Part shown: one piece after another, positions 12,286-44,905 of the stretch | Layout: each line of letters opens with the position of its first letter | Numbering within the stretch: position 1 is the first letter of the stretch | NCBI GenBank assembly: GCA_964016885.1 | Contig: OZ024740.1 | Location: forward strand, 352,284,001 to 352,348,000 | Source: Eledone cirrhosa | Taxonomy: Eukaryota | Length of the DNA: 64,000 nt | Direction: 5' to 3' | Notes under the pieces: model-generated | Told to the model about the DNA's origin: nothing | What the model saw: the letters and a program-made list of their open reading frames with translations, nothing else | Databases searched by the model: none | Made by a program: the position numbers and the translations under genes

Positions 12286-14626
12286 CTGTAATAAAAAAAA
12301 TTAAAAAAAACACACAAGATATAATGCACAATAAAGTGATGACATGATTGTTGTAGAAAAGTTATTTAATCACATGTATTGAAGATTAGAATAACCAAAA
12401 AGAATCTGAACATATTTACAGGGAAATTTACACATGAATGATGTACAAATGAGCAGAAAGAAAAACTGGATACGAGAGGAATCAGTTTTGATACAGGCAT
12501 GTGATGCATATGGAGGAAAGCAGCCAGTGCATGGATTGAACTTGTAGAGGAGGGAGTACCAGGAAGACATGGGAGGAAAGGGTGAAGACTGGTTTTAGGA
12601 TGCTGAGCCTTGTGAAAAACATGACATGATTGCAGTAACTGATGAGACACTGTTGGAGAAGACCTACCCACTCATGCAAGTGTGGTGAAATGAACATTAA
12701 CGTAGTGATGGAGGCTGTGAGACATAATGTATCTATATTTCGGCTTCTCTAATATATCCCTATTAAGTCTCTATCTGCTGCTGCTTTCCTCACCTTTACC
12801 ATATCTTCTCATTTCTCTATCACATACTCTTTCCTTTCACTGTACCATATTGCCTTTGTAGAGATGGCATTGGATCTGTTATCTCTGACACACACACACA
12901 CTCCAATTCAGTTTACCATACCAACTGTTCATATTGTCAATTTTTCTTTGTTTTTTGTTTGTATTTTCATTATATTCTTTTTTATTCAACCAAATCAAAT
13001 TTTAAAAAAATCTTTTTATAATTTTTTTTTAATTTTAACTAAATACCAAAAAGGAGGCATTGCTGCAATCTATATTTAATCCCCCATACTTAATCACTCT
13101 ACTTCTCTCTCTCCCATCACGGCTGTCTGTACCCAATACATCCTACCACCACTCTTTCTGTTTGCCAGCCAACACTCTCTTCCCCAGTTCACTTGTTAAT
13201 GACATCCATTACTTTCTCACCTGCAAACATGTCCCCACCATCACTCTCACATATATTACTCCTTTGAACTCTGTCTCTTTTCCATTTGTCTCCTTTCTGT
13301 CACCCTCTCATCCCAATCACTCTGTTTCTCATCACACACACTGATCCAACTTCTGTTATTGATTTTTCTTCTATTCACCTTTTTGAATGAAGACAAGCAT
13401 TGATACCACGATAAAATGCACCCGATATAAAGTAGTAGGCAAACGAAGGTTCGAGAGGATCCTTTAGTCCTGTTGAGGATATGACACCCTCTAGTGTTGG
13501 CACTAAGATAGTATGCACACAATACACTCAATAGAAGCCATGGCGAAATTAGCACATACAAGCAAGACGGGCCCCCCAACCTTAGAAAACAGTAACTCAA
13601 AATAAGAGCTTGGCCTGTGATAATCCATGCCAATATGGAAAAAAGACGTAAAAATTATGACGATGGCCCAAACTTTGGTTGTCTTTCCAGATGTGTATCA
13701 TAATCAATTCTTGGAGCTAAAACATCTGATATTGGATACACACACACACATTCCAGAGTCGGAATCGTTGCACAAGTGTGCGTGTGTATGTATGTATGTA
13801 TGTATGTTGTAGAAGTCGAAAATGACAACTTTAATTCCTTCCTTTTCTCAATAACTTCTAAACATGACTGAAACTTAAACAATTAAACTAAAATTTCTTT
13901 TAGAAGTAAATTTTGATAACCAACAAAAGAAAACAAATATTTTAAATATCTGGTTTTCATCTACATAAGTAACATTAACATAGTTAACATAACTCCTCCT
14001 AATGAAAAAGGAATTACTTTATGTTGGTGTGGAAGGATTAGTGCCGGAAAAAACATTTCCTCAGAATTTAACTTGCCTCAAAGTATTTAGTTAACCCCTA
14101 AGATATGATGTGCGACCGATTGTCGCAGTTGGTGGTGAATCCCCCCCCCCCCCATCTTGAATGTTTTGGGGGTTTTTTAAATCTCTTTTATGCGTTTATA
14201 TTTGTATATATCATTTGTGTTTGTGTTTTCATTCTGTAAGCATTATATTATATTTTTATACAACTGTGAATAAAAAATTTACTATTCACTAAATTACCAT
14301 ATTTCCAAGTGTCGAAGACTCTCTGACGTCGTGGACACACCCTCATTTTGAGTTGATAAATTTCCAAAGGTTTAATATAAAATGGCTAACGAAATCTTCG
14401 GCATCTAAAACGTCTAAATTTTCCAGGCTTATATTTTTTTCTTTTTTAGGGAAACAAAATTAGCGTCTACTACGACGGGAAATGTGGTAATTACATAATA
14501 GAAATTAGAGAAAAATGTAGAACTCTAAAAACATGGTAAGGAGGACGAATGGTGTAGAGAAAGTATAAATATAAAGACATTTTCGATTAAAGAAACATCT
14601 ACTGTGTAGATATTAATGATACTTAC
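12286..14626 (-). other. Predicted 5'-UTR intron of ZNF gene 1
   Basis: Minus-strand donor TTAT|GTAAGT (plus-strand acttac at 14621-14626) and acceptor TTTTATTACAG| at 12286. Both sites are conserved at equivalent positions in the paralog. Confidence 0.7.
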
Positions 14627-14935
14627 ATAATAAAGTAGTTATAAGATGAAAAAATGAGATGAATTGAAGCAGTGAAACTTGAAATTGACAGATTCAAAAG
14701 AACCGTTAACTATTTGTTCATAGAATATCTCTATTTCTCAAGTTAATGGAGGATCGCTTAAATATATCAGCTATCTAGTTATTACCGAGACAGTTTAAAT
14801 AAATGTAAAGAAAGAACAAGGAATGAATTGTTAAGAGATTTGGTAAACAAGTGATGCTGTCATAACGGAAGTTACAGTTATCGTAATGCTATAACTAACC
14901 TTTAATCAGTAGAGATTACTACAAGAAGATTCTGG
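14627..14935 (-). promoter_or_regulatory. Predicted non-coding exon 1 and promoter of ZNF gene 1
   Basis: Alignable with 24673-24970, 37476-37850 and 44622-44905. Conserved CATAACGGAAGT (ETS-like CGGAAGT) and AATCAGTA(G/A)AGA blocks. Confidence 0.6.
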
Positions 14936-14989
14936 TTTAATGTTATTGTTTTTAGTTGGTATTTTTGTTAGTTTTTTTTAGGGGGAAGG

Positions 14990-15420
14990 GTAAGTGCTCA
15001 TATCTTTCGGAAGCCTTTCAAGGCTGATGAGATTTATGTCGATAACATTCGGCTTAAACTGTGACAGGGTGGAAAAGCATGGGTAGTGAGGGGGGACCGG
15101 GTGTAGTGGTTAGAGCCGTGTCTGGACTTTCGGACACAAATGAGCGGTGAGAGTAGAGAGGAATGAATCGTGTGTGTTTAAACGGAGGTACCACGAGACC
15201 AGCTAGCTCGATGGGGTCAGGGGACATTACAGTAGCAGTAGATGAATCAAAGAGAGGAAATAACACATCTCTACGCCAGAGAGTTGCGCGACTAAACATA
15301 GATCAATCTTTCCAGTTATACTGCGCCCACAGCCAGCTGAAGGTGATGGGTCACACCCTTCGATGGTGAATTGTATAGGGTGCTATGTGAGAGTTTGTAG
15401 GTTTTGTACATTTTCCACTG
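14990..15420 (-). mobile_element. CR1/L2/jockey-group LINE 3' fragment
   Basis: LWRRDV...IELAGLVVPPFKHTR resembles the LxHRRDV..SELxxLVPP C-terminus of this group. Confidence 0.5.
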
Positions 15421-15940
15421 TCAAGTCTATTTCTTTCTGATTACAGATTCAGGTGACCATAGCAATTGCGGGCAAGGTGGGGCCGGTCAAAATGAGATAG
15501 TTGCTGTTCCTCTGTACATATTGTTGATCGTGTGCATCCGCCAGTTTTCACAACTGGTTGGGTTATGTTGTGTGTATGTGGTTTGTTATTGTTGATGTGT
15601 TTTTTGTTTGTTTGTTTTTTTGTTGTTGTTTGGTTTTTTTTGGGGGGGGGGTCTTTGTCTAAGCTGAGGAGGAGAGTGTTTTAGAATGGTGTTGTTGTGT
15701 TCTAATTGTTATACAAGTTTAGATGTAAGCGCACTTGTTATTTTCCAAACAACACTTGATAAATAATGAGAAAGTTAGTTATATTATTAAATCCTTTCTA
15801 ATTCTTGATTATTTCCAAAGTTAATTGATAATCACAGGCAGTATCATTCATTAGAAACATGGTAATGGATGAGTTACTGTATATATTCTTGGTTACACTC
15901 TTATTCTTAAAAGAACGTAGAAACAATTATTACTTTCTAA

Positions 15941-16133
15941 TGGCGGTGGATTGGTAGTATCGGTAGAGGGTTGGACACCATGCTTTGACGCATAGAGTTA
16001 CGGCCCTTGTCATTCTGAGTTCAAATCCCGCCGAGGTTAACTTTGCCTTTCATCCTTACGGCGTCGATAAAATAAAGTACCAGTAATGCACTGAGTAATT
16101 GCTGGCTTTGTGCCAAAAGTAGAAACAATTATT
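15941..16133 (+). mobile_element. tRNA-derived SINE family A (Meta-domain-like). Further copies near 1190-1290, 19030-19215, 21120-21232, 23855-24030, 25010-25135, 27365-27552, 37500-37670, 56263-56390
   Basis: A box TGGTAGTATCGG, B box GAGTTCAAATCC, central GCCTTTCATCC..GTCGATAAAATAAAGTACCAG, tail GTAGAAACAATTATT. Confidence 0.85.
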
Positions 16134-16859
16134 ACTTTCTAATTCGTCTGTCATACATGAGTGTGTCCGTGAAACACATACACAAGGTCCAAACACAAAA
16201 GAACCTAACTCCCACTGTCACTGCCTGCGTCTCTCCCGCTCTCCCCATCTCTCGCTATTATGAGCAAATGGGTGGAGCAGGGCACGCGCTGGCGGCCCCA
16301 CGGCTTCGGCGGAACGAATGGAAAATACTTTTTTAATATAGTGGTAAAACTGAAGTTTGAATCTTGTTGTGGCAACAAACTGTGCCCCTCACATATCCAG
16401 TTGGGTTATGTACAACCTGTGATGATGCATGCAGTGTTTTGTATATTTTTCAGTTTATTGTAATCGATGATGAGGTGGAGGGGCATAGACCATGATGTTG
16501 CTCATTTGTTTGTTTCTTTCTGGTAGATTAACAAACTTGTGAGTGCTATAATTATTTGTATCATTTTGCATATGTATGGGAACATAAATCGTGGTGGAGT
16601 TGTAGGGGTACCGCTGTGTCTTAGACACTTCAAAATTTATTTTATCCAGTATAATTGTCCATTTTTTAACATAGCAGGGTTTTATTTGAAAAGGGTTTTG
16701 GTTGCATTTTCTGCAAGGCGAGCAACTATGTAGAGGTTACTTCACTGGCTCTATAGGAAAATGTAATTATCATTTGTAATCTACTAAAAATACTTCTCTA
16801 CCCAATGCAGAGGAGTAGAAGATAATTTAATACTTGGGCCTGACCAACCACTTCCTCTT

Positions 16860-17030
16860 TGTACCAGTCTCCATTGAGATCTGTGGTGTGGCTATTGCAG
16901 CAGGGGTGGTCTCTGGCCATTCACCATGGTAATGCTATTACCATTTTGTCCGCATGTCACAGCTGAGGCACCGCTCAGACTGGGGTGTAGTGTCTGTCCC
17001 TCCCCCTCTCCCTTTGCTTAATTCTTTTTC
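16860..17030 (+). mobile_element. CRE-like 3'-end copy (a third, more decayed copy at about 22560-22740)
   Basis: Homologous to 2650-2770 (ggctattgcag..ggtaatgctattaccattttg..cagctgag..ctcagactggggtgtag). Confidence 0.55.
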
Positions 17031-17184
17031 TTCTTTTCATTTCTTTGTTCCCTTTAACAGTGGGTTTTATTTTTGTATAAACAGCTTTGTAAAATAAAAT
17101 GGAGACTATTTGTTGCTGTAGATAATTTTTTAAAAAATAATTTATAATTGTTACAAATGTAAACAGACATTTATTTAATAATCC

Positions 17185-17716: not shown

Positions 17717-20007
17717 TTGTTTAATAATGTTACTATGATTATAACAGTGTTTCATAATGTTGATATTGTTATTACATACATTTGTTAGTGTTTAAGGCTT
17801 TTACTATGGTTATAACTGTCATCTATTAGTATTTAATAATGTTACTACAGCTATAAAAAAACATGTAAAAACTCAAGTTACTGACTGTATGGAATATATA
17901 TATATATTACTTGACTTAACTAAAAGCCCTAATAATACAAAGGAGTATGGTCAACTGAATTGAAACCAGGTAGTAAATACATATAATGATAAACATGTCT
18001 AGCTTGATAAAAATCAGAATATTATCTACTGGGAAATATAAACTACACAATCAGTGTGTGATAAGTACCAAGTAAAGCCAACATCATCATCATCGTTTAA
18101 CATCCATCTTCCACCCTAACATCAACTGACATCCCACAATAAAACATAATGAAGAGCACAACTAAGTTTGGAAACATCATCTTTAATATGAGCATCTGCT
18201 GTCATGAATATTGAGAATGAAACTTAACATTCCCGTTGACTGGAAATAGTTATAATACTAACTATATCAACAATCTGCCAATTCACTGCCTTTGATGATA
18301 AATATTAGAGATCAACTTATCCTAAATATTTCTAATATATTTTGATGTTTTATCTTCAGTCCAGGATAATATTAACATTCATCTGTACAACCACATATCT
18401 AATGATTATTATCATTAATATTCACATTTCTGCTCCATATATGAGAGTTAACCATAGATAACATTTTAATCGCCACAATAATGATTATATTTAGTATTTA
18501 CCAATTATTTTCCTATACATACTTCACCATCAAATTTTTCATCTAATTTCATTCCTTCCACTTTCTTTAACAATTGTGAATATATTATTTTATATCTAGT
18601 TCATCAATTTCCATTCTAAAATGATAAAACACATCCATTCCAGCATGTAAAGTAGTAGTGTTGGTGTCACAATAAAATGCATCTAGTCCACCCTGTAAGG
18701 TGATAGTGATGGTGCCACAACAAAAAGCACCCAGTCTACTCTGTAAGATGGTAGTACTGGTGCCATGAAAAAAGCTCCCAGTGCAGAGTGTGAAGTAGTG
18801 GTATTAGGAAGGGCATCCAGCCATAGAAAACTAAACTAAAAATGGAACATACAAGCAAGACATGGTCACCTGACCTGTCTGGACTTATAATGTGCCAACC
18901 CAACTAACACATGTAAGCATGGAAAATAGTCATAGTGATGATGATAATGATGTATGATAGTAACTCTTTTGTTAACATATTTCTAATGAAAACCACTGCT
19001 TATGATGTTTCAAATAATCATTATTAAGCTGTTAGTGGATTGGCAGTATCGGTGGACGCCATGCTTTGCAGTACAGAATTACGGCCCTTTACGTTCTGAG
19101 TTCAAATCCCGCCGAAGTTAACTTTGCCTTTCATCCTTAAGAGGTCGATAAAATAAAGTACCAGTAATGCACTGAAATAATTGCTAGCCTTTTGCCAAAA
19201 GTAGAAACAATTATTAAGCTGGTGTTTGGACCATACATTTCTTACATAAAATTATGATGGAAAGCTTTCAGATAAATATAAACATTTTAAAACAGTTTCA
19301 GGCAGTTTGATATCAAAAGGGTTAATAACCACCCTTAGTTTTTTTTCTTATTTACAATCTTTGATCTTGTTTCTATGATAGTCACTCTCATTCCATATGG
19401 AATTTTATTTATCAAGTACTTCAGTCATATTATCATGTTAATATTTTTTTTACATCACCAGTCATACATTCTTATTAACTCTCATAAACTGCATGATGTC
19501 TCTAACATTTAATCCTCGTTTCTAAAAAAAATGACTAATGAAGATCAATAAAAAATATATATACACTTAAATATTATTGGCGTATTGATTATAAATTGAT
19601 AGTTTCTGAGTATGTCAATATAAATGTTGGTTAGATATTATACATGTAAAATGAGAATTTCTGCATAATATTAGCTACAGCTCTGTGTGAATTCAATAGA
19701 CATCAATGATATATAGTTTCTTCAATAACATTTAGAAATATACTGAACTACTATATCTTCTCTATCAACAATACAAATGTACCATTTTAATGAGAAAACT
19801 TGGCTGCCAACTATAACATCTATAGATACAGAATAAGTATAACATACACTGCACAAAAAATATAAATAAATAAATACTGGGGGTTACTGAAATGTTCTAG
19901 CAGGTACATTGTCATCCAGTAGAGTTCTGTTGTGGCTTAGTTAAATATCATTATGTGGTAAACCCTCAAAGGCCCCACAACATCTGATGATCAGTAATAG
20001 CAACACT

Positions 20008-20115
20008 ATATAAAGGATGTCCCAAAAAAATGTATACAAACTTTGATTACCTGTACAGGCAATATTTATTAGAATGCTATTGAAGTGTGTATACATTTTG
20101 GGCACCCTGAATATA
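20008..20115. mobile_element. Tiny Tc1/mariner-type MITE
   Basis: Imperfect TIRs aggatgtcccaaaaaaatgtatacaaactt / aagtgtgtatacattttgggcaccctg, with TA flanks. Confidence 0.55.
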
Positions 20116-21303
20116 GCATGACGCAAAACCTTTAGGGTCAGTAAATACTCCAGTCCTAGTTGTTGACCCTCTAAAAATGTTCTGTAAGACTGACATTGTT
20201 GTACAGCTCACATATACAGACAGTGCTACTACTACACACACATATATCCTAGAATATTTCTAAAACAAGACCATTTGATTGATTGGCAATGATTCAATCA
20301 CTAGCATACTACTATTAATAACTCATAAAAACTTGAAAAAAAGGCTGGCATGACCATAGCTGGAATGGTTTTCATATGTCTGCTCACTTAATCACAGATT
20401 AACTTATTTAGTGACAACAGGATTGTTATAATGTACTGGGTCAAGTTGCAGAAAATATTTCAAACATAAATTCTTCTCTGTAGAGTGGTCGTATCAGAGT
20501 CACAACAAAAAGCACCCAGCCCACACTGTAAAGTGGTCATATAGGAGTCACGACAAAAAGCACCTAACCCACACTGTATAGTAGTCATGACAAAAAGCAC
20601 CCAGTCCACACTGTAAATGTTTATGGCATTAGGAAGGGCATGTAGAAATTTGGCCAAAAACAGTTCTGTATCAACAAGACATGGTCACCTGACCCAACTT
20701 GCCTCAAATGAGACAACCCGTCTAACCCATGCTAGCGTTAAACGATGATGATGATGATAAATGAATGGTTCCGAGTATAAAAATCTAAAAGACAACATAG
20801 CAAACATCTAAGAGGAAGTTAGTTATAGACTGTATGGAAACCTAGTAACAGGAGAAGTGGCTTGCTTAACATGTAGGAAGGATTTAGATAATGCATACAA
20901 TGGGTCACAAAAAGCAGACAAAAAAAAATACAATGGGATCTCAGACTGTCAGGACATTAAGATATTGCTTATGATGCTGACAGTAATATGTTGAGATTCA
21001 TTCATACAAATGCATGATGTATGTTCATGATAATAAGGAAACATTGTGAAAAATGAAGAACTTCATCGTCGAAGCAGTAAGAATTAATAGTATGAATAAA
21101 GATAAACTAAAGGTTTGAAATAATTGTTTCTACTTTAGGCACAAGGCCAGCAATTATCCAGTGCATTACTGGTATTTTATTTTATCGACCCCGTAAGGAT
21201 GAAAGGCAAAGTTAACCTCGGCGGGATTGAAATAATAACTTTCTTCTAGCAGAAAAGAATATAAAGGGGAACAACTTTGCTTGGCCTATTAAACGTTATA
21301 TAT

Positions 21304-21594
21304 CAGGGGTGTGCAACATTCCATTGGCGGGCCACTTTTGAACATTGGAACAACTATTAGGGCCATTAATATTTATAAAGCACTATTCCAAAGATTCACC
21401 ACTTCTTTCCATAACATGGAACTGGGAAATTATAACACATATAATCCTATCAGTTTAGGTCAACTAACAGAAAATTGTATTACAGCCTCGAAAAAAATTC
21501 TAAATAAGCCTACAAGATAAAAATTAAAAACGGCCACTCTGACTGGTCTAGCGGGCCGGATTGTATCCTGCCGTCCGCCTTTTGCACGCCCTTG
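21304..21594. mobile_element. hAT (Charlie-type) MITE
   Basis: TIRs CAGGGGTGTGCAA / TTGCACGCCCTTG. 8-bp TSD TTATATAT / TTCTATAT. Confidence 0.8.
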
Positions 21595-22999
21595 TTCTAT
21601 ATCGTCCACTCTCTATCCATTATTCCAGACGTATTTACATAATTTTTTTTTTTTTTGTAATTAACATAATACACAAATAACAATCATATGTAAAATATGT
21701 TATAGCATTTTCCCCCATATATTCCACATATATTCTCTCGTAGCATATAGGATAGTGGTTTCTGCAGATTCTTCATTTTTGCACATAAGACTACATGGTT
21801 TGTGTTTATATTTGTATGTTTGGGGGAGAGGGAGAGTTTAAAATGAAACTAATGATAATGGGGTATGTAAAAATATGCTTGGCTTTCTTGAATTACTGAA
21901 ATGAATAAGTTTGATTTTTAGCCCACCACCACCAAAAAAATATATATCAACTTGAATTTTACCACCTTCCTCATTGCATACATTTTTTAAACCCGACTCC
22001 AAATACATTTTTAGATCTAAATATGTTTGCTAGACACTTCTTAACCAAATATACACCCCAACCCACTTCCTCTACCCTCCCACCAACACCACCCTTTCTC
22101 TGTAAAGTTATGTTGGTACCACAACATCCAGTCCAAACTAATGAGGTCGTGTAGGTGTCACGACAAAAAAACACACAGTCCACACTGTAATGTGGCTGTG
22201 TACGTAACACGGTATAAAACCTCCCAGTCCACACTGTAAATGTGGTTGGTGTTAGGAAGGGCATCCAGCCGTAGAAATCCTGCCAAATACAGTCCTATAC
22301 TAGCGAGACATGGTCACACGACCAATCTTGCCTCAAGTGGGACAATTCCCGTTAGACGTTAAACAATGATGATGATGATGACTTGTAATGAAATTTTCAA
22401 CTTTGTAACTCATGTTTCCTCTATTAAAGTATGTTTCCATATATATGAGTTAGAAAGAAATGTTCCTTCATATGTTTGGATATATGGAGCAAGATAAACA
22501 GTTGAATCTCTAGCAAAGTGTAGCGAAATTTCCCAGCAAATCTTCCTTTTTTGCTAGGTCTGAGGAAGGAGCAGTTCCCATAGCCTTTTGTGTTGGTATT
22601 GTCAATGTTATCAGGTTGATTTTAGACTTCTAATGATGAATCATCATTTGCTGTTTGTCCACGGGGTGCAGCTGGGCACGGCTCTCTACTGGGATGTAGT
22701 GACTGTCCCTCCTCTTTCTGCTATTTCTTAATACTTCTTTTTTTATCTCCTTTATGTTTTCTTTTTTCTTCTTTTTTTGTACCCAAGTTATTTTCCATTC
22801 ATCTTACTTACCCTATTTATCTTCATCATTTGGCTGCTAGACTGATTTTCTATAATGTTTATTTTTAGAATTATAAAAATCAATCTTTTCTTTCATTAAA
22901 AAAAATGAACTTCGTTGTTCGTGGTCCAGCTGATTGATTCAATGCTTCTCCTCATCAAATGAATTTCAATGTATTCATTCATCTTATATTTGTTGTGTT

Positions 23000-24260
23000 C
23001 ATCTCTTCTTCTTCACCCACTTATTCCTGAGAGGGTTATGGGGCAGAGTTCTCAAACACTCCTTCCAGTGGGTCCTATCGGAAGAAGCCATCTCCAGCTG
23101 ATCTGGCTAGATCCCCAAGCAAAACCAGCCAAGCTCATGGATGTTATCCAACTATCTTGCTCAGGGTCTCCTGCTGGTTAGTTTTACCCATAAAATCTGT
23201 CCAGCGATTCTTTCCTGAGACATTCTAACCACATGCCCATAGTATCGGAGCTATGATCTCTCAATTCAGAGAAATAGCGACTCTACCTGGAGTGATTCTC
23301 TGATCCCTGAGCTAAGCACTCTATCAAGTAGGGTTACTCCAAAGACCCTTCTGAGGAACCCCATTTTGGTGGCTTGATCAAATTCTTTCGGTCATTACCC
23401 AAGATTCATGACCATAGGTAAGGGTTAGCATAAATACTGAACTGAAGATAGCGAGTTTGGCTTTTACACCCACCTCCCTTCATCCAATTACCAAACGCTG
23501 AAGCTGGTGCATTGCTGCATCAGCTCCAGTAATTCTTGCACTTAATTCAGCCTCCTACCTACCATCACTCGTGAACGCAGCCCAAGATACTTGAACTTCT
23601 CTAGCTGCTTCAGTGGAACTCCATTCATATGTAGAGTGCACTGCACAGGCTTCCTTTGGGAGGATGAGTGTCTCAGTTTCTGCAGCACTGATTTTCATTG
23701 CAGCCAAGCAGCACTCAGCATCAAACCTCTCAAGTGAAAGTCAGAGATCACCTTCTGTTGAGTTAAGTAACAACATGTCGTCTACAAATTCCAGTCAACT
23801 GATTTTACACACGCCAGTCATGATACCACTTCCAACCCTGCTGTGCATGTAAATAATGATTTCTGATTTAGGCACAAGGCCAACAATTTTGGAGGGAGAG
23901 GAAAGTCGATTAAATCGACTCCAGTGCATTAATGGAGCTTTATTTATCGACTCCATAAGGATGAAAAGCAAAGCTAACCTCGACGGAACTTGAACCCAGA
24001 ACGTAAAGGGTCGTAACTCTATGCTCAAGGCACAGGAAAGGTGACAGTACACATCCTTGGCAGAGTCCAACTCCCACATTGAATTTTTTCGATTTAGCAC
24101 CATTTATCCGGGCATGTGTATATAGACATCAGGGCAGCAAGCTGACCATCGATCCCATACTCCTGCACAAACTTCCACAGCAGGTGTCAGGAAACGGTCA
24201 TATGCCTCGACAAAACAAGAATATACCTGTTGGTAATACTCCCACAATTTCTCAATGCCC
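23000..24260 (-). mobile_element. Decayed RTE (Rex3/Expander-like) LINE interrupted by a SINE at about 23855-24030
   Basis: LTYGHESWVMTER and LKQLEKFKYLG motifs on the minus strand, (GAA) tail near 23005. Homologous to 1-560. Confidence 0.75.
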
Positions 24261-24329
24261 TTGTCGTGTTTTTGAAAATTGTTTACTATTGTTAGGCATT
24301 TAGAACATGACTTGGCAAACTCTTCCATT

Positions 24330-24590
24330 CACTAATAACTCTTGGATATTTTCTATCTACTGTTTCTTATTAGGTGTTTAACTGTAACCTCTTGCATTTT
24401 CATTTTTATGGAATAGTATACTAAGATTATATTCTGAAGTCATTTTATCATTTTAAATACATCTAGCATGCTTTCTCTCCTCTACAGTTGTAATTCCTTG
24501 ATAGTTTATTTGTTACTCTTCTCTGGATTCTTTCAATAGCTTCTATGCTCTTCGGAGATAAGGTGATCGAGCATCATGCACTGTGGATCA
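24330..24590 (-). mobile_element. CR1-like LINE fragment
   Basis: Minus strand SPYL..IEAIERIQRRVTNKL-like motif. Confidence 0.5.
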
Positions 24591-24609
24591 CGAATGGTGC
24601 AGATGAAAT

Positions 24610-24970
24610 ATAAATATAAATACGAGACATTTTCGATATAAGAAATATCCAAAATATATTAATGATACTTACATAATAATGCACTTTCAAAATAAATTAA
24701 TTAGAGATGTACTGAAATAGTGGGACTTGGAATTGATTGATCCACGAGTACTTTCAACTACTTTTTTTTTAACTGAATATATCTATTTTCATCTGGTTCG
24801 TGAAAGCAGTAATTAGTTCGTAAGACAATGTAAATAATGTGCAAAGAAAGAACAACAGATGCATAATAGTTAAAGATAAAATATACGATTGACGATTACA
24901 TAACGGAAGTATCGGCTGTCGTATGCAAAGAACTCGCCTCCAATCAGTAAAGAGTGCTATACAGTTTCTC
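24610..24970 (-). promoter_or_regulatory. Orphan copy of the ZNF promoter/exon-1 module
   Basis: gagacattttcgat..aatgatacttacataat (donor at 24667-24672), aaagaaagaacaa, cataacggaagt and caatcagtaaagagtgc all match the modules of the two ZNF genes. Confidence 0.7.
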
Positions 24971-26544
24971 GGTTTGCAGCCGACAGATTTTTTTTTTCCT
25001 TGACGCTGTGCTACGATTAGGTGTTTTATACGCCAAGGTTTACTTTGTTTTTCATCCGTACGGGGTCGATAAAATAAAGCACCAGTAATGCACTGGAGTA
25101 ATTGCTGGCCTTGCGCCAAAAGTAGAAACAATTACATAAACCAAAGGGCTTAAATCAAATCAATTTGAGATACACAAACAATCAAAAAAGTAGATTGGCA
25201 GCAATAATAAAAACAGTTCAGAAGGGTTGGGGGGGGGGGCATACACATTTCTTCAGTTGTACCATACATCAGGGAATGTTGTTGTTTCCCACGAAAACTT
25301 TTTGAGGCAACCCGAAACAGCGGTATTACCGAGAGCGATAAAAAGTTTGGGGAGTTAGAACAGCCAAGTACCCTCACAAACATCTAATACTTCAGTAGGA
25401 CTAATCGCCATCGATGACATAAACTTCGACCTCGGATCCCACAACTACGAATATCTGTTATAAAGGATTTTTTAATGTGAACCAACTTTCAATATCAATC
25501 TATTTATTAAATGGGTTAAGGGTTGCTGAACAACATTATGTCGCACACAAAAAGTTTTCATTTGTTGACATTTACTTTTTAGTCAGAAACGGAAAGCGTC
25601 CTTCAAACAAAAGAGGAGACAATTTCTGAAGAAATTCAGAAATAATCTCTCCAAATTGTCTAGAGGAAAATCTTATCTTTACAAAAAAGGGATAACTATA
25701 AACATGTTTTCGTTTGTTGTATCTCATCAACACTGCAGAATCTACTCAAACTTGCTTGATCAGTTGAGAAAAATTTTAAATGTAGAAAAAAGTTATAATT
25801 TCTGGCCAGTATAATTAGCTAATTCTTTGAGATTCGCAAACAATTGTTGCTAAAATTTTGCTTGTGAGAGGGTAATTCTAATTAATTAAGATTTTGTTAC
25901 ATTCATTTAGTACATCGCTCCCATCGAAATTGATGCCCATTTATTCAATGAGTTATTTCCATTCGTCTATTTTTTATGTTTTATCTAGTTGCTATGAAGG
26001 GATATAATTTGTCACAATAATGTTTAGAATTTTCCTTAAAAAAATAAACAAATTATTTATCAGAATATGTAGAATTTTTTTAAAGATAAAAATAATACAA
26101 TTTATTATGAGAATGATCATTATTAAATACTTTTGTTCATTAAATATTTTAACAAAATTACTCGTGACTGAAAACAAAATCCTACACAAACTAACGAGAG
26201 AAACTCTATTGCTAGAAATAACAGACAAATGTGATAAATTTTGCTTTTAGTCAAGGGTGCTTTTCTTAACGAAGGTAGTATGTCACCCGTTAAAAGGTAT
26301 TCGATTAAAGAGCTAACATCTTCACATTCGATAATTTAAGTAAATCGATGGGATCTATATAGTGCAGTAGTGCCATGAGAAAATTCTTTTTATGAAAAAC
26401 ATGACAAATTATTCAATAACTTTCAAAAGAAGAGAACAGGAAAATAGTTTATGTTTAGTTATCACTGAGTTTGGTTCAATCACAGCAGTAATTTTCTGGA
26501 TTAGTATTGGGCAGCAACTATTTTATATATATATATATATATAT

Positions 26545-26737: not shown

Positions 26738-26770
<33 letters not shown>

Positions 26771-26776
<6 letters not shown>

Positions 26777-29176: not shown

Positions 29177-30120
29177 TCTATACTATAAAGCTGACGGCCG
29201 TATGCAGGTAACAATCTTTCTGCCAAACGGCTGGACCAAACAGCACCAAATTTGCACCATAGATGTAACTTTTTCCAAGTAAAAAAGTTAGGGTATTTTT
29301 GTCTACTGAATTTTGTTAAAAGATTAAAGACATTATTTAAATATTCACTTCGTTAAAATTTCAAATGTCAACACTTCCGGTTATACGTCCTCACTTTTTC
29401 TTATGATGCCGCACAACATGCTCTGTATGTATGGCTGTCTGCATTACATAACGTTTTTCAAAATATTTACTTCTGCGTTCACAGACGGATTTTTTTTAGT
29501 TTCAGAAGATCCCGTTAAGGGTGAAAGCGATTCTTTGCTTAAACTTTAATCTGTTATTTTAATATATATATTCGTGTACAGATATTTTTGCATACACAAA
29601 AACAAAAACCTATTTATTTCACGAAAGCACAGATGGCTTATCGTCATTGTTACTGTTCGAGGTTAGAGGGCAAAAGTCTATCCAAGATCTGAGAACCATC
29701 AATGGCCATCAATGTTCCACTTACCGTTTGGCTTGCCAGATGCGTTGTATGTTACACGATGACAGCCATTGGCACTTCACCCACGAAAGTCTAGCTGGGG
29801 ACATCCTCCACCGTATACGCAGACACAATCCGAATGTAACATACGATGTTGTTTTCAATGAGGCGCTCATTTGTCTTGAAAACAGTGTCCTGGAGATTGG
29901 TGGTAGGCCTCTAAGTCACTACAGCTTACCTGCTCTTGACAGGAGTGTCCAGAGGTCAACGTCTACAGAGCTTCTTCGCGAGATGAGCTACGAGATCAGT
30001 GCTTCTCCCATGGTCAATTGTATGTAGGATGCTCTAGGGTGAGCTCGCCAAACAATCTCTTCATCTTTGCTCCGGAGGGCCAAACAAAAAATATTTTATA
30101 CTCTGAGGCTCTAACAATGT
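29177..30120 (+). mobile_element. Internally deleted Helitron with a RepHel remnant
   Basis: 5' TCTATACTATAAAGCTG. LLFEVRGQKSIQDLRTINGHQCSTYRLAC..LHDDSHW is joined to the PIF1 C-terminal motif SHGQLYVGCSRV..QTKNILYSEAL. Confidence 0.8.
29498..29545 (+). ncRNA. Putative type I hammerhead ribozyme, variant core (family H)
   Basis: AGTTT-CAGAAGA-t CCC gttaa GGG t-GAA-AGC gattcttt GCT-T-AAACT. Stems I, II and III all pair; predicted CUU cleavage triplet; core has A at U4. Confidence 0.6.
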
Positions 30121-32250: not shown

Positions 32251-34234
32251 AGAGAGAGAGAGAACGAAGGAAAGATGAAGACTGTTATCATCATCATTAT
32301 TTTACGTCTGCTTTTCCCTGCTTGCAAGGGTGGGACGGATCCTCTTCAACACAGCATCTCTCCATTTGTCACAGTCCTTCATCATCTCTGTGAGCTTCAG
32401 CGATATATATATATATATTTAAATATAGGAACTTATAAAGAGTAAATGTTAATAGCATATGTATAAAGTACTATTTTCCTTTCATCCCTTTTTCATTCTC
32501 TTTAGGCAATGAAATATATATTTAAGGTCACTACATATATATTGGAAAATAAAATATACTTTTTAATTCTCAATTTCTTTTTCTGAAATTACCACTTTTT
32601 TAATACTATATTAATAGTGTTTGAGTGTGAGCAATTTTATGAATAATTGTAGGCATTACATTTACACACATACATGCACACTTACATATTTACCCATGGA
32701 TACATTTATGTACACATATGTCATATACATACTGACGTACATGTCCTTACATATACACACATATCAGTACATAGATGTCTAATCAGTCCAACACATGCAT
32801 GCGTATGTTCAATCCTAACAACTGAAATTTTTTTAAATAAACAGAAACCAGGAAGACAATCTATGATTTCTCCAAAGTCCCTCCCACGATAATAGACGAT
32901 AAATCCGAAAACGTTTTGGACTAATAAACATTCAGTCATTTTTCTTCTTTCATTTTCCTTCTTCACCCAGATTTTGCTTTCCACCTTACCACTTTCAATT
33001 CCTTCCAACTTGTTGCCTTGGGAACTATAACCCACTTGCATCATACGGCTTCCTAAACATACCAAATTTTCATATCCACATATTTTTTTATATTTATAGA
33101 TTTTTATTTGTATTTATATCACTTAACTATTTTTATTTTCAAAATTAATATTTATTTTATATAAATTTGTAAAAACTTAATTATAATTATTTTACCTGAT
33201 ATTCCCTATAGTTGCAAAAGTATACTCCCCAAATTACCTGTCATATAACAGGTAACACTAGTTAACCCTTTAGCATTTGCATTACTCTATATTTACTATT
33301 GTATTTTCATGGTAAACACTTTATTTCACATAATTATCTCACATAATATCGAATCTACAAGATTTTGATATTATATATTTTGAGAACACTACCTTAACAT
33401 AAGTATAAGCAGCAGGTTATGACTAGTTTGAACAGAAAGAGGTGAGAGAATTCTGGCCAGATACAACCGGTTTAAATGCTAAAGAGTTAACTTATATTAA
33501 TACATATTTAAGTGAGGGCGAGAGGATTATTAACACCAAAAGTTGATAGATTTGATGCTCTAGAAGAGCAGTATAATGATCATTTTAAATTGAGAATAAT
33601 ATAAAATTTATTTATCTTTCTTAATGCATGCTACAATAAACATATAGTAAGTAATATGCAATTTTAGACAATTATACATCTTATACGACTTGAGTATAAG
33701 TATTTCAACATTTATAAGTAACAATAAGTTTCTTTGCAATGTCAAGAAAGACATTGCAACAATTCATACAATGCTAAACTTTAAAAAATACATTAAATTA
33801 TTGATCAATAAGGAAAGGCAATACTTTTGCAAAACCTATAAAAATTACTAACATTTTAATAAAACTACTTTCAACTTGTGCTACAATATTTGTTTTTCTC
33901 AAATCTATTTCATCGTTCCTTCTATTAACCACATGGTATGTTACTCCATTTCTGGAGTGGCAAAATCAATCTTTTTTTCCCCCTTTGATCTTGTGCTGTT
34001 GCAATTCTGCCAAACTCACAAATTAGCAATAATTGAGAAATTCAAACTAAAAAAAGATAACTGATGATTAAAAACTTAAAAACTAACATGCTTGATATGG
34101 CTTGCTTAAATATCATTATGTAGTATGATTTGGATGTTTGTTTATGACTTCACAGAAGTATATTATAAATCATAGGTGTGTAACTTGTGTGAATATTTTT
34201 GTGTGATATCATTTCTTCACTGTACAAATATACC

Positions 34235-35170: not shown

Positions 35171-35539
35171 TTTTTTTTTAATATATATATATATATATTG
35201 CTTTGGGACAGGAGAAAGAACAAGGAAGGCGAAAGTAACCTTGCAAGAAAAGTATTTGCTGAGAGAAAATCAGTGGAGTAAAAAATTGTTTTTATATTTG
35301 ACAAAAAAAAAAACAAAAAAAAACAATTGTATTGTGGGCAGAGTAGTGTTCTGAAAGTCTGAATACAAAGAAACGGTCAATGGTGTGGCAAGGTGAATGG
35401 AAATGATGGTCCACAGGTTTGGCCTGAGTGGAGTGGTGAATATTTGATCATGAAAACAATCACCTAAATGGCTATGTTGAAAAATGTACATTCATCAGGA
35501 GGGATCTTCACTGATGATGAAACCCAATGTATGTAGCAA

Positions 35540-36200: not shown

Positions 36201-37086
36201 TGTACCAATTGATTTATTAGTAAAAGAGGAGGAAATATAACAAAAAGCATGGACATTACTTTAACTCTTTTCCATGCATCCACGGGAAGACACCAACTTA
36301 AAAACGAAAAACCGTCGAATTAATTTTTTAAAAACTCAAAATAGTGACTGTTACGAAGCTCTGCAACATATAACTGATAATTTACCTGGACATGTAACAT
36401 TTTAATAGTTAAGTACACAAACGCCTCTTATTACTTTATATCACAGAAATGCAGTAAACAATCGATTGCTCCATTGGATTTTCTAATTAATATACAAGTA
36501 ACGCAGCAAGTGTGTTGGTTTGCCTCGAAAATTATTAGAGAGGTTTCCCAGTGCTCCTCGCGATATTGTTATAATTTGCTCTGGTAGCGGTTCGTTTGTC
36601 CACCCCTTTTGCCTGCTTTTTGTTGTATGTGGTCCTAGATGTATGTATTACCTGCTTGTGTATTTTTTTTCTTTTTTCCTTTCCCTTTTCTTTCTCTTTT
36701 TTAATTATTTGTAATGTTATTTATATACAAAATTATATTCTTTCCGTAAATACGGAAAAAAAAACATACAAATGTCTGATGTACGTTTATGAAAATAAGT
36801 AAGCACAATGTGAACGAAAAAAAGGACATCGTTAGGAGAGGGGAGACGGGAAAACTTTTTTTTTTTATTACACATGCCTCCGAGATGGCTGTAATGGATT
36901 TTTTTTTTTTTTTTTTTAAGTAATTAGATAAGTTTGGTTACAATTTTGAAAGTGAAATTTGTTTTTCCTGTGATTATTTGGTGTGTTTTGAACAAATATT
37001 GCCTTCAAACTCGTTAATTACTCGTTTTTTGTTATACCCCCACCCAAAAACTCCATAACATCCGTCTCGGAGACTGGTGTAATAAT

Positions 37087-37310
37087 TGTTTCTTATATAG
37101 GCACAAGGCCAGCAATTTTGCGGGAGGGGAAAGTCGATTAAATCGACCCCAGTGTATGACTAGTACTTTATTTTATCGACCCCATAAGAGTGAAATGCAA
37201 AGTTCAAAGTTAACCTCGGCGAGATTTGAACTCAGATTATAAAGGACCGTTATTCTATGCTGCAAAGCATGGCGTCCGACCCTCTACCGATACTGCCAAT
37301 CCACCGCCCT
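37087..37310 (-). mobile_element. Full-length SINE family A copy with TSD
   Basis: Flanked on both sides by GGAGACTGGTGTAATAAT; A and B boxes intact on the minus strand. Confidence 0.88.
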
Positions 37311-37449
37311 GGAGACTGGTGTAATAATAATTTACCAAAGTAAATAACATGGATGAATTCACTACAGTTATATCAAAACAGAAATAGGAAAATTATGAGA
37401 TAAAAGAAAACAATTTGACAGGGAGCGAGAATGGCGTAGACAAAGAAAT

Positions 37450-37850
37450 AACTAAAATATAGCAGTGACACTTACATAATATTGTTGTTTATAAGATAAA
37501 ATAATTGTTTCTACTTTTGGCACAAGGCCAGCAATTATCCCAGTGCATTACTGGTGCTTTATTTTATCGACCTCGTAAGGATGAAAGGCAAAGTAAACCT
37601 CGGCGGGATTTGAACTCAGAACGTAAAGGGGGATAATTATATGCTGTAAAGCTCTACCGATACTACCAAGATAAAATAATGAAAGACGTACCAATGCGGA
37701 CATTGATAAATTCAACAGATCTTTCAACTACTTACATGTTATTTCTGTTTTCGTCTGGTTAATGAACAATCTCTTGACTAATAAATGTAAAACATTGTGT
37801 CGTTCATAAGTGAAGAATTTATCTCTAATCAATAGAGAGGGCTATCGATT
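37450..37850 (-). promoter_or_regulatory. Diverged orphan ZNF promoter/exon-1 module with a SINE inserted at about 37500-37670
   Basis: acttacataat donor (37470-37475), ataagat, ctttcaactactt, ttttcgtctggtt and ctctaatcaatagagagggctat. The CGGAAGT block is missing. Confidence 0.55.
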
Positions 37851-39399: not shown

Positions 39400-40120
39400 A
39401 AATACTGGTGCCTCAACAAAGAATCACCCGGTCCAATCTGTTAGGTGGTCATTCTGGTGTCACAGCGTAAAGAACCCAATCTATTTTGTAAAGTGGTAGT
39501 AGTGGTGCCACAAAAAAAAACTCCCAGTACACGCTGTAATGTGGTTGGCATTAGAAAGGGCTTTTGCCATGTCACCAACATGACTACTTTACAGTATGGA
39601 CTGGATGCTTTTTGCCATGTCACCAACACAACCACTTTACAGTGTGGACTATGCGCTTTTTGTTGTCACCAACATGACCATTTTACAGGTTGTATTGGGT
39701 GCTTTTGTCATGTCACCATCACAACCACTTTACAGGGTGGACTGGGCGTTTGTTGATATGTTACGAACATGACCACCCTACAGGGTGCTTTTTGTTATAT
39801 CACCATCACGACCATGACCACCTTACAGGGTAGAGTGGGTGCTCTTTGTCATGACACCAATATGATCACTCCATAGGCAAATTAGGTGCCTTCTGTTGTC
39901 ACCAACATGACCACTTTATAAGGTGGACTGGGTACCTCCTGTTGTCCCCAACATGACCACCTTACTGGGTGAACTGGGTGCTTATTTGTCATATCACCAG
40001 CACGACCACCTTGCAGGAAGGGTTAGGTGCCCTTTTGTCATGTTACCAACATGAGCACCTTATATGGTGAACTAGAGGTTTTGTTGTGTCACCAGCACAA
40101 TCACTTTACAGGGTGAACAG
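39400..40120. repeat. Minisatellite of about 12 x 47-bp diverged units derived from the RTE/SINE 3'-UTR subrepeat, preceded by inverted units
   Basis: Unit approximately ttttgtcatgtcaccaacatgaccactttacagggtggactgggtgc. Polarity flips near 39560. Confidence 0.85.
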
Positions 40121-41843
40121 CTTTTACCCATTTCAGCAGGACTGTAGGAGAGTGTGTTCAACATTCCATATTTTTATACATGGATTGAACAAGAGGTGCA
40201 TCAAATATGGAAAGTGGGAGTGAGATTGCATGTATGTAGGGTGGAGATTGGAGAGGTAGGTCAAGAGTTGGGCACTTAGCTGGTAAGAGGTGGAATAAAT
40301 GTAAATAAATATATTGTTCAAAATTTTTTATTGTTATTAAATTTATTCCATTATGAATAATTTTCGTCATTAAAATTTCACAACAGTAAATAAATCTTGT
40401 TAAACTTAACATTATACAAAAATATGAAATCATCATATCTATGGTGAAAAGTAGATAATAGAGAGAAAATGTTTTGTTGGAAGATATGTATGAGTGCCTG
40501 TACTTGTTCTCAAGCTGTTTAGTATCCTCCATTAAACCCAAGAGTCATATTCCAACAAATACAGTATTATAAATAATTATATTTCATAAAATAACCATGG
40601 TTTAGTGGTATACATTTTTCTAATGCAGCTTGCCAACATTAAAAAAGTTCTCTACTTCTGCCTTAGAGCTTCAAAACAAACTGTCGTTGTTGAAGATTAA
40701 TTTGAAAAATATATTCGCTTAAAAATACTGGTGGACTGATTATAAATTCATAGTTTCTGATTATATCAACCTAAGTTTTAGTTACTGAAATGAAAGTTAT
40801 TGCCATATGAGATATATTTTCTTCAATAAAATCTAGAAACAAGCTAACTACCAAAATATTTTTCTTACAAACAGTACAAATGTACTAATTTTAAACAAAA
40901 ATCTTATTGCTGACCATAACATTTGTAGATATAGAATATTTAGAACAAATGAAAACACGTATTTCACAAGAAAAAAATAACACAAATTAATATTTTAATA
41001 TTTTATTTTAATGAGATTTTAATTTCTATGGTTCTATATATTTAGTCAGTTACACAAATATTGTGGGTTGACTATTGGAATGTTTTAGCAGATACATTGT
41101 CACCTAATGGAATTAGTGGTATAATGTATTTAATTATTTATGATACTCACATCTGGAGATAATATATTAGCACTTATATTACAGATGTATATTATGTATC
41201 AAACGTAACTTCTGTGAGACATTCAGGTCAAGTACAAAGATGACATAAGGAAAGGGCTGGCAAGAAATTAAACATGAAAAAAAAAAACATGTGCTAGATA
41301 GTAACCAAAAGTATTTAAACCGGCCCTAGCTGGCCAGAATTCTTTCAGTTCAAACTGGCCATAACTGGCCAGTTTGAACTGAATACCTTATTTGAACTGA
41401 TACCTTGAAATAAATAATATCAAAATCTTGTAGATTCGATTTTATGTGACATGAAGTGTTTACCATGAAAATACAATAGTAAATGTAGAGTAACTAAAGG
41501 GTTAAGAAATGGCTTGCATCCTGTATCACATGAAACCACATTAGCAAAACATGCTTCATAAGTACAAAACTACTATGACTGCATCACATTAAAAATTAAA
41601 GTCGTTATTTTAATTTACTGGCAATTTTCACAATGATCTGTTCACTAGCAAAGATGATACAGACATTTGAATTAACAAACCAATTTATAGATATTTTCTG
41701 CTGTATCATTACAGGATCTTGACAGTTAATGTGTAGGCGAGAAGTAGATACAAGTTCAATACTGTGTACAGACAAAAGTATAGAAAGGATGTTGAGATAT
41801 TCTGGAAAGTTGAGTTAGGAGCAATATTCCAGATGCTCTAAAT

Positions 41844-42254
41844 CAGAGGTTCTCAAAGTGGGTGGTACCAAACCCCGTGGGGCGTTGAGAAGGTCCAGTG
41901 GGTACTGGGACCTATAGTAATAGTGGCAGGTAGAGATGATATAATCATATATCAAATGATACATTATATAAATATAGTAAAATAAAAAATATATATTTAT
42001 TTATACATAGTATTATTATATTATTTATTATATATAAATTATTATGTAATAAATAAAATTGTTAATTTTCTTTCGTTCTTTCGTTTAACGTCCGTGTTTT
42101 GGAACACGGACGTTAAACGAAAGAACGAAAGAAAATTAACAATTTTATTTATTACATAATATTTACAAATCTCTCTGGAAATAGGGTTGGGGTGGAGCTG
42201 AGGGTATTACATGGCCATGAGGGGGCAGTAGCCCCAAAAGTTTGAGAACCTTTG
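41844..42254. mobile_element. hAT (Charlie-type) MITE downstream of ZNF gene 2
   Basis: TIRs CAGAGGTTCTCAAA / TTTGAGAACCTTTG. Degenerate 8-bp TSD CTCTAAAT / TTCTAGAT. Confidence 0.8.
42040..42161. repeat. Perfect inverted repeat, 59-bp arms, 4-nt loop
   Basis: 42040-42098 is the exact reverse complement of 42103-42161. Confidence 0.95.
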
Positions 42255-42484
42255 TTCTAGATGTTTAGGCATAACCTACTGTAGCAGAAACACGAAATGT
42301 TCAGCTGATAAAGTATTCAGTTCATATAAAATATACAGAGATATCAGATGGACTATCAGCATGGAACAATGAATATTAAAATATTTCTGATAATGACTGT
42401 TCCAAGTTAAAATCCAAATAAACAAATTAATTCATAATATAATATATTATTTGTAGAAAATATTTAACCACGAATATCACATAC

Positions 42485-43393
42485 CTATGGTTTCTCTCCT
42501 GTGTGGATACGTTTGTGTTGAGCTAAATTATCACTTCTAGAGAATGTTTCACTACAGATATCACAGTGGTATGGTCTCTCTCCTGTGTGGATATGCTTGT
42601 GTCTAGCAAAATGACCACTTTGAGAGAATGTTTTACCACATATATCACATTGGTATGGTCTTTCTCCAGTATGAATACGTACATGGACAGACAAATGACC
42701 CTTTGTAGAAAATGTTTCATCACATATATCACATTGGTATGGTTTCTCTCCTGTGTGGATATGTTTGTGATAAGTTAAATTACGTTTTCTAGTGAATGTT
42801 TCACCACAGACATCACAGTGGTATGGCCTTTCTCCTGTGTGAATACGTTTGTGGACAGACAAATCAGCACTTCCAGAAAATGTTTTACCACAGACATCAC
42901 AGTGGTATGGTTTCTCTCCAGTATGAATACGTTTGTGTTGAGTTAAATTATCACTTCTAGAGAATGCTTTATCACAGATTTCACAGTGGTATGGTTTTTC
43001 TCCTGTGTGAATATGTTTGTGGGAAGACAAATGACCATTTCTAGAAAATGATTCACCACAGTTATCACAGTGGTATGGTTTTTCTCCAGTATGAATTCGT
43101 TTGTGTCGAGAGAAACTGCCCTTTAGAGTGAAATTTTTACCACAAATATCACAGCGGTATGGTTTTTCTCCAGAGTGAATACGTTTATGGGAAACTAAAG
43201 TGCTAATATCTGAGAATGTTTTACTGCAGATATCACAGTGGTGTAGTTTTTCTCCTATACAGTTATGACAAGTTAACAAATTCTTTGTAGAGAATAATTT
43301 ACGACATACATCACATGTGTGTGGTTTCATTTCTGTATTTTCCTGTATCTGATTAGCTGAATCAATATTTTTAAGTTTTGCTTTCTCATCCAT
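42485..43393 (-). CDS. C2H2 zinc-finger protein, 9 canonical fingers plus 1 degenerate N-terminal finger, 302 aa
   Basis: Uninterrupted ORF with TGEKP/TGERP linkers. Same MDEK..MKPHTCD leader as gene 1. Confidence 0.93.
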   Translation of the reverse strand: MDEKAKLKNIDSANQIQENTEMKPHTCDVCRKLFSTKNLLTCHNCIGEKLHHCDICSKTFSDISTLVSHKRIHSGEKPYRCDICGKNFTLKGSFSRHKRIHTGEKPYHCDNCGESFSRNGHLSSHKHIHTGEKPYHCEICDKAFSRSDNLTQHKRIHTGEKPYHCDVCGKTFSGSADLSVHKRIHTGERPYHCDVCGETFTRKRNLTYHKHIHTGEKPYQCDICDETFSTKGHLSVHVRIHTGERPYQCDICGKTFSQSGHFARHKHIHTGERPYHCDICSETFSRSDNLAQHKRIHTGEKP

Positions 43394-43780
43394 AACTTTC
43401 TCTTATAATCTATATTTCCATGTATGATGATTTTTGTTAAAGTCTACTGATATCTTGGCTGTTAAGAAATAACTTCAAATGAATGTATTAGGATAGAATC
43501 ATGTAAATAATGACATGCAACTAAAAGATAATTAAGCTAATGTTAATTAACAAGATGTATCTAGATATCAAATCCTCATATGTCAGACACTTTATGACAA
43601 ACCTTCTGAGTTTAATAAGTACAGAAAACATTTGATTAGAAGTTTTTGCAATTTTTAATCCCAAGAAAATATTTCACATCCATTCAGCCAAAAGTTGTAG
43701 AAACCAGTTAATATCAGCTTGGTGAAGTTATTTCAATCTTTAAGAATTGATAAATGTGTCAATAATCTTCAGTGAAATAT

Positions 43781-44621
43781 CTGTAATAAAACACATCTAG
43801 ACATCAGAGACAATGAAGAGATAACAAGATATTTAACCATATGTATTGAAAATTAGTCAGAAGAAAGAATCAATAGAAATGTAGTGAAGTATAGATTGAC
43901 ATTATAGAAGAAAGAGGAAAATGTACCATGGACGATGAAAATTATGAGGACAGCATAGAATAAAACAATGGAGCAAGAACCTTCAATGTTGATTTGTCTG
44001 GAAGCCAGTGGAGGAATATATTTTGATGTTGTACTGCCAGATTAGGGTAGTGTGGGGCCTGAGCATAGACTATAAAGGAGTCCTACAATCTGGATCCAGA
44101 ATCAGAAATTTTAACATCTCAAAATAAAGCCTAGCTCGGAGCTCAAGAACATTTTATTCAATCTTTTAAATATGTTTGCTAGACAAAGTTCACTCCTTTA
44201 AACAGCCGTGTTTGGGATTTTTTCTGTCATTTTATGACCACACAAGCCAAGCTAACTCAAAGTTCTCTCCAGTAAAGGTATTGGATCATAAGTGCATTTT
44301 GTAATTTCTGGATCCCAAACTAAATTTACGGACTAGTGTCGTAGTCGTCAATTGACTTTCATTTTCAATATACCAATAATAATTAAAAAAATAATACATA
44401 CATATGTACGTATATATTCGACTATCCTCGTCATGTGATGTAAATGTTGATTACATTGGTTACAGTCTGTCAACCAGGTACGAAAAATCACCAATACTTT
44501 TCATATAAAGGGATAAAACAAAACAGATTCTAACAGACAGCAGAAATAGCGAATGGAGTAGGAATTTAAATATAATAGACATTTTCTATACAAGAACTAT
44601 AAAAAATATATTGATACTTAC
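43781..44621 (-). other. Predicted 5'-UTR intron of ZNF gene 2
   Basis: Donor TTAT|GTAAGT (acttac at 44616-44621) and acceptor TTTTATTACAG| at 43781. Positions match gene 1. Confidence 0.7.
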
Positions 44622-44905
44622 ATAATGTAAGTTATACGATGAATTAATTAGGTAGAGCTACAAAAGTAGCGCTATCTGAAATTGATGGAAACATCGCTGA
44701 ACTTACAATTACATCTAATACGACATATCTATCTCTTAACTACTGTAATTAATTATTACAAATACAGAGTAAATATATATGTTAAGAAAGAATACATCTA
44801 TAATGTTTATAGATTTAATAAACGAGAATGACATAACGGAAGTGACATTCGTCGTAAGGGAAGACCTTACCTCTAATCAGTAAAGAGTGCAACACAGGTT
44901 CTTGT
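44622..44905 (-). promoter_or_regulatory. Predicted non-coding exon 1 and promoter of ZNF gene 2
   Basis: cataacggaagt and ctctaatcagtaaagagtgc blocks are shared with the other modules. Confidence 0.6.

Follow-up and report, generated by a model that had tools for sequence, protein, structure and literature searches.

Two zinc-finger promoter modules in Eledone cirrhosa as probable relics of gene birth and death

The window, a stretch of 64,000 nucleotides from the octopod Eledone cirrhosa, likely once carried four tandem copies of a C2H2 zinc-finger gene. Two of these copies appear to have lost their coding exon, while their promoter/first-exon modules persist as relics that are probably inactive or in decay; we give this reading a probability of about 0.72. 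Ordinary gene-family decay is the likely origin of the relics, and pseudogene relics in a zinc-finger cluster are an already known kind of phenomenon. What was observed directly is how modules pair with finger arrays, in which order the remnants lie and how well each copy is preserved.

The donor sequence TTAT/GTAAGT occurs exactly four times in the window, always on the minus strand, with its GT at 14626, 24672, 37475 and 44621. Each occurrence belongs to one of four modules, which we named M1 (at 14.6 kb), M2 (24.7 kb), M3 (37.5 kb) and M4 (44.6 kb). M1 (14544-14925) and M4 (44542-44905) are the likely promoter/first-exon modules of zinc-finger genes 1 and 2, respectively. M2 (24588-24971) is an intact orphan, and M3 (37442-37850) is a degenerate orphan in which the ACTTCCG block is deleted. 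The motif CATAACGGAAGT was found only at 14861, 24899 and 44832, and AATCA(G/A)TA(A/G)AGA at 14904, 24942, 37827 and 44875. A preliminary description of this DNA had reported four minus-strand modules with a kept donor, the first motif in three copies and the second in all four, and these counts are confirmed. Overall, the modules share 62-70% pairwise identity. M1, M2 and M4 can be aligned over about 370 bp, with identities of 64-70%, and the BLAST match between M1 and M2 has an E value of 2e-29. The spacing from TGATT to ACTTCCG (CGGAAGT on the opposite strand, a putative ETS-type site) is fixed at 31 nt in these three modules. The spaced module pattern matched the genome 14 times and its reversed control not once, indicating that the likeness of the modules is not due to chance. 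M3 is without 54 of the 145 conserved core columns, ACTTCCG among them, with a roughly 170-bp SINE (about 37500-37672) standing directly before its donor; it is not the clean module of about 350 bp given earlier. No known structured RNA was found in the module.

Only two of the modules lead into a coding exon. Exon 2 of gene 1 (11045-12285, minus strand) follows an acceptor AG ending at 12286 and has a 5'UTR of about 410 nt, an ATG at 11875 and an ORF of 276 aa with nine C2H2 fingers. Exon 2 of gene 2 (42485-43780, minus strand) follows an acceptor AG ending at 43781 and has a 5'UTR of about 390 nt, an ATG at 43393 and an ORF of 302 aa with nine canonical C2H2 fingers. The acceptor and the 5'UTR of about 400 nt are homologous ahead of both ORFs. 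The post-stop 3' flank of gene 1 occupies 10702-11044 on the minus strand. A distal 3' block shared by the family, likely the 3'-end region, lies at 6330-6800 for gene 1 and at 40612-41140 for gene 2, both on the minus strand. Both proteins are Pfam zf-C2H2 arrays, in which Pfam detected neither KRAB nor any other effector domain. Protein searches returned no orthologue of the subfamily in relatives, some of these searches being swamped by generic fingers. A 98-aa stretch outside the fingers of an Octopus sinensis protein, whose cluster includes members from O. vulgaris and O. bimaculoides, has a single match in the 3.0-Gb genome, at 72%, as would fit an octopod cephalopod. The open frames begin within exon 2, 18 nt (gene 1) and 9 nt (gene 2) before the ATG; with in-frame stops just upstream of both ATGs, a swap of first exons cannot alter the protein. 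Profile and tblastn scans of the window gave no third acceptor/5'UTR exon or finger array, in agreement with the earlier claim that only the acceptors at 12286 and 43781 have coding exons. In particular, neither an acceptor/5'UTR nor a finger array was detected between 12.4 and 42.4 kb, which argues that coding capacity was lost there, and the spacers held no significant hidden finger remnants.

We quantified how the modules relate to zinc-finger arrays across the genome. About 42 copies of the module, a lower bound like all our genome-wide module counts, are present in the 3.0-Gb genome, where they gather in zinc-finger clusters and point towards the arrays; copies of the exon-2 5'UTR were found at the same places. 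For a closer examination, 864 kb around the module matches, the window included, were scanned with iterated profiles. A module was called near-complete if it covered at least 300 of the 418 profile positions, which was the case for 25 of the 39 merged matches, and paired if the next feature was a same-strand array of at least four fingers. By this definition 23 of the 25 near-complete modules were paired, with the array 670-5834 bp downstream, compared with 4 of the 14 partial ones (Fisher p 8e-5); positions and strands drawn at random from these blocks satisfied the pairing definition in 19.6% of cases. Three further copies (one near-complete, two partial) had no array of at least four fingers in the 12-13 kb examined downstream. 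In total, 23 of 26 near-complete modules are paired as against 4 of 16 partial modules, the other 12 partial modules being orphans. One module per coding exon is the rule of the family.

Sequence conservation and base composition pointed in the same direction. Of the 25 paired copies that were aligned, 23 retain the donor and 22 retain AYTTCCG, and the acceptor is conserved among paired copies where it can be aligned. The CpG observed/expected ratio was higher in the module than 1.5-4.5 kb downstream in 22 of the 23 paired modules that are near-complete (medians 0.81 versus 0.32, p 2e-5). The same step is seen behind all four modules of the window, with module and downstream values of 0.68 and 0.23 for M1, 0.98 and 0.33 for M2, 0.92 and 0.24 for M3, and 1.10 and 0.31 for M4. 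In the accessible part of a study of octopus methylation (PMC9476566), methylation lies on gene bodies and is scant on promoters and transposons; given that pattern, the CpG drop behind all four modules is what would be expected of former methylated gene bodies. Taken together, the linkage to arrays, the conservation of the donor and the CpG step suggest that the module likely supplies the promoter and a non-coding first exon to the two-exon genes of a C2H2 zinc-finger subfamily. The view of the module as a promoter/first-exon cassette is thereby supported, and the genome-wide search proposed along with it ties the module to zinc-finger genes.

The M2 unit retains the parts of a gene without its coding exon. 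Behind M2 lie about 3.3 kb (21265-24587) made up mostly of LINE and SINE fragments and other sequence. Then comes a remnant of the family's intron 1 (21003-21264, minus strand; a SINE at 21119-21228 lies inside it), which ends at a putative deletion junction near 21000-21015. An intron-1 profile built from paired genes only matched 21264-21016 (E 2.8e-6), and the adjoining 21014-20915 matched the post-stop profile (E 1e-4). The post-stop remnant extends over 20158-21014 on the minus strand in the pieces 20915-21014, 20773-20903, 20331-20413 and 20158-20292, with a repeat interrupting it. The second piece is the single other match in the genome to the 3' flank of gene 1 (10780-11040), at 84% identity, and is followed in order by 20413-20331 and then 20292-20158. 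A distal 3' block (19526-19962, minus strand) closes the unit; it has an internal deletion and keeps an ATTAAA at 19791, to which we presume a role in polyadenylation. Intron 1, post-stop flank and distal block thus stand in the right order and on the right strand. The abutment of early intron 1 on post-stop sequence suggests that the M2 unit is a gene copy minus acceptor, 5'UTR and ORF. The likeness of TTT(G/A)TATG at the junction may reflect microhomology. We also considered an orthologous repeat insertion common to the 3' flanks of gene 1 and the M2 unit, and rejected it as the insertion points are about 90 bp apart. The preliminary description had caught the orphan modules but not what follows them downstream, the remnants of intron and 3' end.

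The M3 unit is less complete. Remnants of the family's intron 1 lie on the minus strand within 36362-37442 (37358-37442, 36740-36880 and 36362-36500; E about 0.003 each), with LINE fragments downstream of them. Profile searches found no significant coding or 3' remnant; a weak possible trace of finger end and 3' block at 34107-34232 on the minus strand (E 0.15 and 0.21) is not significant. M3 could thus be a partial 5' duplication instead of a whole gene. The module profile detects both M2 and M3, which are therefore homologous to part of the intact gene.

These features can be arranged into a simple model. An intact gene would start near ACTTCCG, use GTAAGT as the donor for its own acceptor and, we infer, terminate at the distal 3' block. 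In the M2 unit, a deletion near 21.0 kb would have brought post-stop sequence up against the early part of intron 1, removing acceptor, 5'UTR and ORF. The M3 unit would have lost its coding exon as well, with decay more advanced.

Such hollowed copies are not confined to the window. The distal 3' block has 14 matches in the 864 kb, of which 11 follow a same-strand array at a distance of 0.7-6.2 kb; the remaining three stand behind orphan modules, namely M2 and, with two pieces, the orphan at C3:38162534. A third orphan, at C3:260642820, has a distal block 1.7 kb behind it and no exon 2. The anatomy of the M2 unit therefore recurs at two other loci. The tree of the modules (built from the 30 copies with 230 or more positions covered, nine shorter ones left out) was star-like. 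M2 grouped with M1 at a weak bootstrap of 64, and the orphan at C3:38162534 with its local paralogues at 92, so that these two losses look independent.

Whether the M2 module itself has decayed is a separate matter. Relaxed constraint is evident in M3, from its missing core columns, and not seen in M2. Core mismatches numbered 19 of 140 in M2, 25 of 151 in M1 and 19 of 142 in M4, by a score that takes mismatch to the commonest base among the other copies, mixes in shared ancestry and is unable to separate recent death from continued function. M2 keeps all four scored motifs, its branch length is 0.22 (M1 0.26, M4 0.24), and its CpG observed/expected ratio of 1.34 is the highest among the 39 modules. 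The absence of decay counts against a long-dead M2; a recent loss of the exon and continued use fit equally.

It is accordingly conceivable, at odds that we consider low, that M2 is still an active promoter of a non-coding RNA that would use a cryptic acceptor within the M2 unit and end at the unit's 3' block at about 19.8 kb; the hollowed gene would then influence gene 1 as a lncRNA or a cis-regulator. The kept motifs and donor, the CpG richness, the 3' block with its ATTAAA, the acceptor-like sites at 21512 and 21248 in the M2 unit and the module-plus-3'-block pattern at two further loci all speak for such activity, against which stand the internal deletion in the unit's 3' block and the record of CpG decay in its SINEs and short repeats. 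As a clock of methylation loss, transposon CpG decay is mixed, underpowered and given little weight: young SINEs in the body of the M2 unit showed 0 of 9 CpG transitions versus 9 of 35 for the bodies of intact zinc-finger genes (Fisher p 0.10), a weak hint of faded body methylation, and six short repeats in the unit showed 4 of 34, near background. A LINE inside the unit weighs the other way, against an inactive M2: transitions have removed 6 of its 7 family CpGs, which points to methylation after its insertion, at a time not fixed relative to the deletion. If M2 fires, transcripts would run into these two acceptor-like sites, at 21512 and 21248, and into the ATTAAA block well before reaching 12286, so that a self-contained non-coding RNA is likelier than splicing to gene 1. 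Splicing of that kind had been one preliminary proposal, in which M2 and M3 serve as alternative promoters joined to the gene-1 acceptor at 12286, with variable first exons and a constant coding exon. We regard it as improbable. The modules are indeed tandem and co-oriented, with motif and donor except for the ACTTCCG lost from M3; M2 is intact and sister to M1, and with no family-type acceptor between M2 and 12286, read-through transcripts could use the latter. Nevertheless, several first exons per constant exon are not what the family displays, as 23 of 26 near-complete modules are matched one-to-one with an array, and the first exons would bring no coding variety to proteins whose frames open inside exon 2. 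The orphans, moreover, head decayed units of their own. The intron would measure 12.4 kb from M2 and 25.2 kb from M3, compared with 0.7-5.8 kb to the first finger in near-complete paired modules, and on the way a transcript would need to pass the 3' block of M2 itself, the candidate acceptors there and many AATAAA/ATTAAA sites. Cephalopod protocadherins, too, diversify by whole-gene duplication and without shared exons in the portion of PMC9068888 at hand.

The module might, in principle, be a dispersed transposable element or a chance repeat unrelated to zinc-finger genes, which had been named as the outcome that would overturn its reading as a gene part. In the DNA examined, a few partial copies (C4:363678912, C4:75568001) are indeed remote from arrays, and the genome copy counts are lower bounds. 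The counts themselves, at least 42 copies in 3.0 Gb, are low, however, and the copies are clustered with arrays and oriented to them. Real SINEs gave dozens of matches within 800 kb, the module 4-19. With the donor and AYTTCCG kept in nearly all aligned paired copies as well, we consider this reading extremely improbable, and a dispersed transposon in particular to be largely refuted by low copy number and array linkage.

Birth-and-death relics place the window beside several known systems. In the sections of the literature available to us, mammalian C2H2 clusters evolve by birth and death, through tandem duplication and loss (PMC2443715), and the KZFP-related genetic units of the mouse form tandem C2H2 clusters with duplication and loss (PMC5363842). 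These clusters have in common with ours the tandem duplication of whole genes, their loss, pseudogene-like units and a finger array in the last exon. They differ, as far as those sections go, in that the octopod genes here carry no KRAB or other effector domain by Pfam, and in that what our relics have lost is the array, with promoter and 3' end retained, whereas the mouse units are recognised by array sequence (PMC5363842). A large C2H2 expansion is described for cephalopods (PMC9068888). The accounts of this expansion (PMC9068888, PMC10547256) share with the window the clustering of poly-zinc-finger genes in a coleoid, but the parts of these accounts accessible to us contain neither a shared promoter/first-exon cassette nor exon-less relics. 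Vertebrate protocadherins and UGT1 likewise have tandem, co-oriented, paralogous promoter/first-exon cassettes upstream of a spliceable exon, according to the excerpts at our disposal (PMC3325998, PMC1885805, PMC3333863). Their first exons are coding and their constant exons shared by design in those excerpts, whereas the modules here have non-coding first exons and normally an exon 2 each, the extra ones leading into remnants of their own genes. Our search of the literature, mostly non-subscription and without supplements, turned up no report on octopods that describes the promoter cassette or relics of this kind.

An immediate use of these results is a definition of the subfamily promoter, TCTYTAVTRATT-N31-ACTTCCG followed by a GTAAGT donor, to which the acceptor and the 3' block can be added. 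With promoter, acceptor and 3' block so defined, relics become recognisable without coding sequence. As a speculation that we think more likely wrong than right by a wide margin, octopod clusters might repeatedly spawn hollowed genes that lose the DNA-binding exon and keep promoter, donor and 3' end under selection, and M2 might serve as a non-coding RNA unit or as a second promoter tuning its neighbour. If that were true, hollowed genes would be a cephalopod route from whole-gene duplicates to genes with multiple promoters. If M2 is active, it would show that duplicated zinc-finger genes can become lncRNAs or additional promoters, and this in a lineage whose clusters are reported to diversify through the duplication of whole genes.

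Orphan modules, that is, copies of the likely promoter/first-exon cassette of this C2H2 zinc-finger family without a coding exon 2, also occur elsewhere in the genome. One near-complete orphan lies on the minus strand at C7:88734448-88735030, and exon 2, the zinc-finger array and the family's distal 3' block were all absent from the 12 kb searched downstream of it. Several other orphans are oriented away from a nearby zinc-finger gene. At two loci, modules stand head to head, separated by a few hundred bases (C3:288106756 minus and 288107381 plus at locus L101; C3:260684455 minus and 260684953 plus at locus L085), an arrangement which suggests bidirectional promoters. In addition, three different module copies carry a SINE at a near-identical position, directly before the donor: the window copy M3 (37500-37672), C3:260704563 (L087) and C3:288101700 (L101). 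Two of the three are still paired with intact genes.

The window also holds features of other kinds. About 400 bp upstream of the module copy M4, the Rfam histone 3' stem-loop gave a marginal match (45304-45348, minus; 34.5 bits against a cut-off of 34 bits). No histone frame was seen at this match, and the sequence upstream of it resembles a mariner-type transposase remnant. A 352-bp direct repeat containing CCGGAAGT (46525-46876 and 48199-48550; 99.4% identity, spacing 1.3 kb) is possibly a young terminal-repeat element. At 57100-63900, 7-8 units of ~885 bp form a tandem array with identities up to 97-100%; the units have a ~197-bp substructure, and five of them contain CGGAAGT once each. 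The CpG-rich gap separating the likely decayed gene copies headed by M2 and M3 includes a 154-aa open frame (29563-30027, plus), which had no match in a Pfam search and resembles a Helitron protein fragment.

The opposite imbalance to the window's orphan modules was observed on the minus strand of C3, where three co-oriented family exon-2/zinc-finger arrays (38174783, 38181227 and 38188435; L119-L121) have one detected module upstream (38190994). Further family exons without a module were located at C3:288114365, C3:288085521 and C3:235409149, and in the region neighbouring C3:288097403. Such exons could have promoters that were lost or diverged; alternatively, a single promoter could serve alternative last exons.
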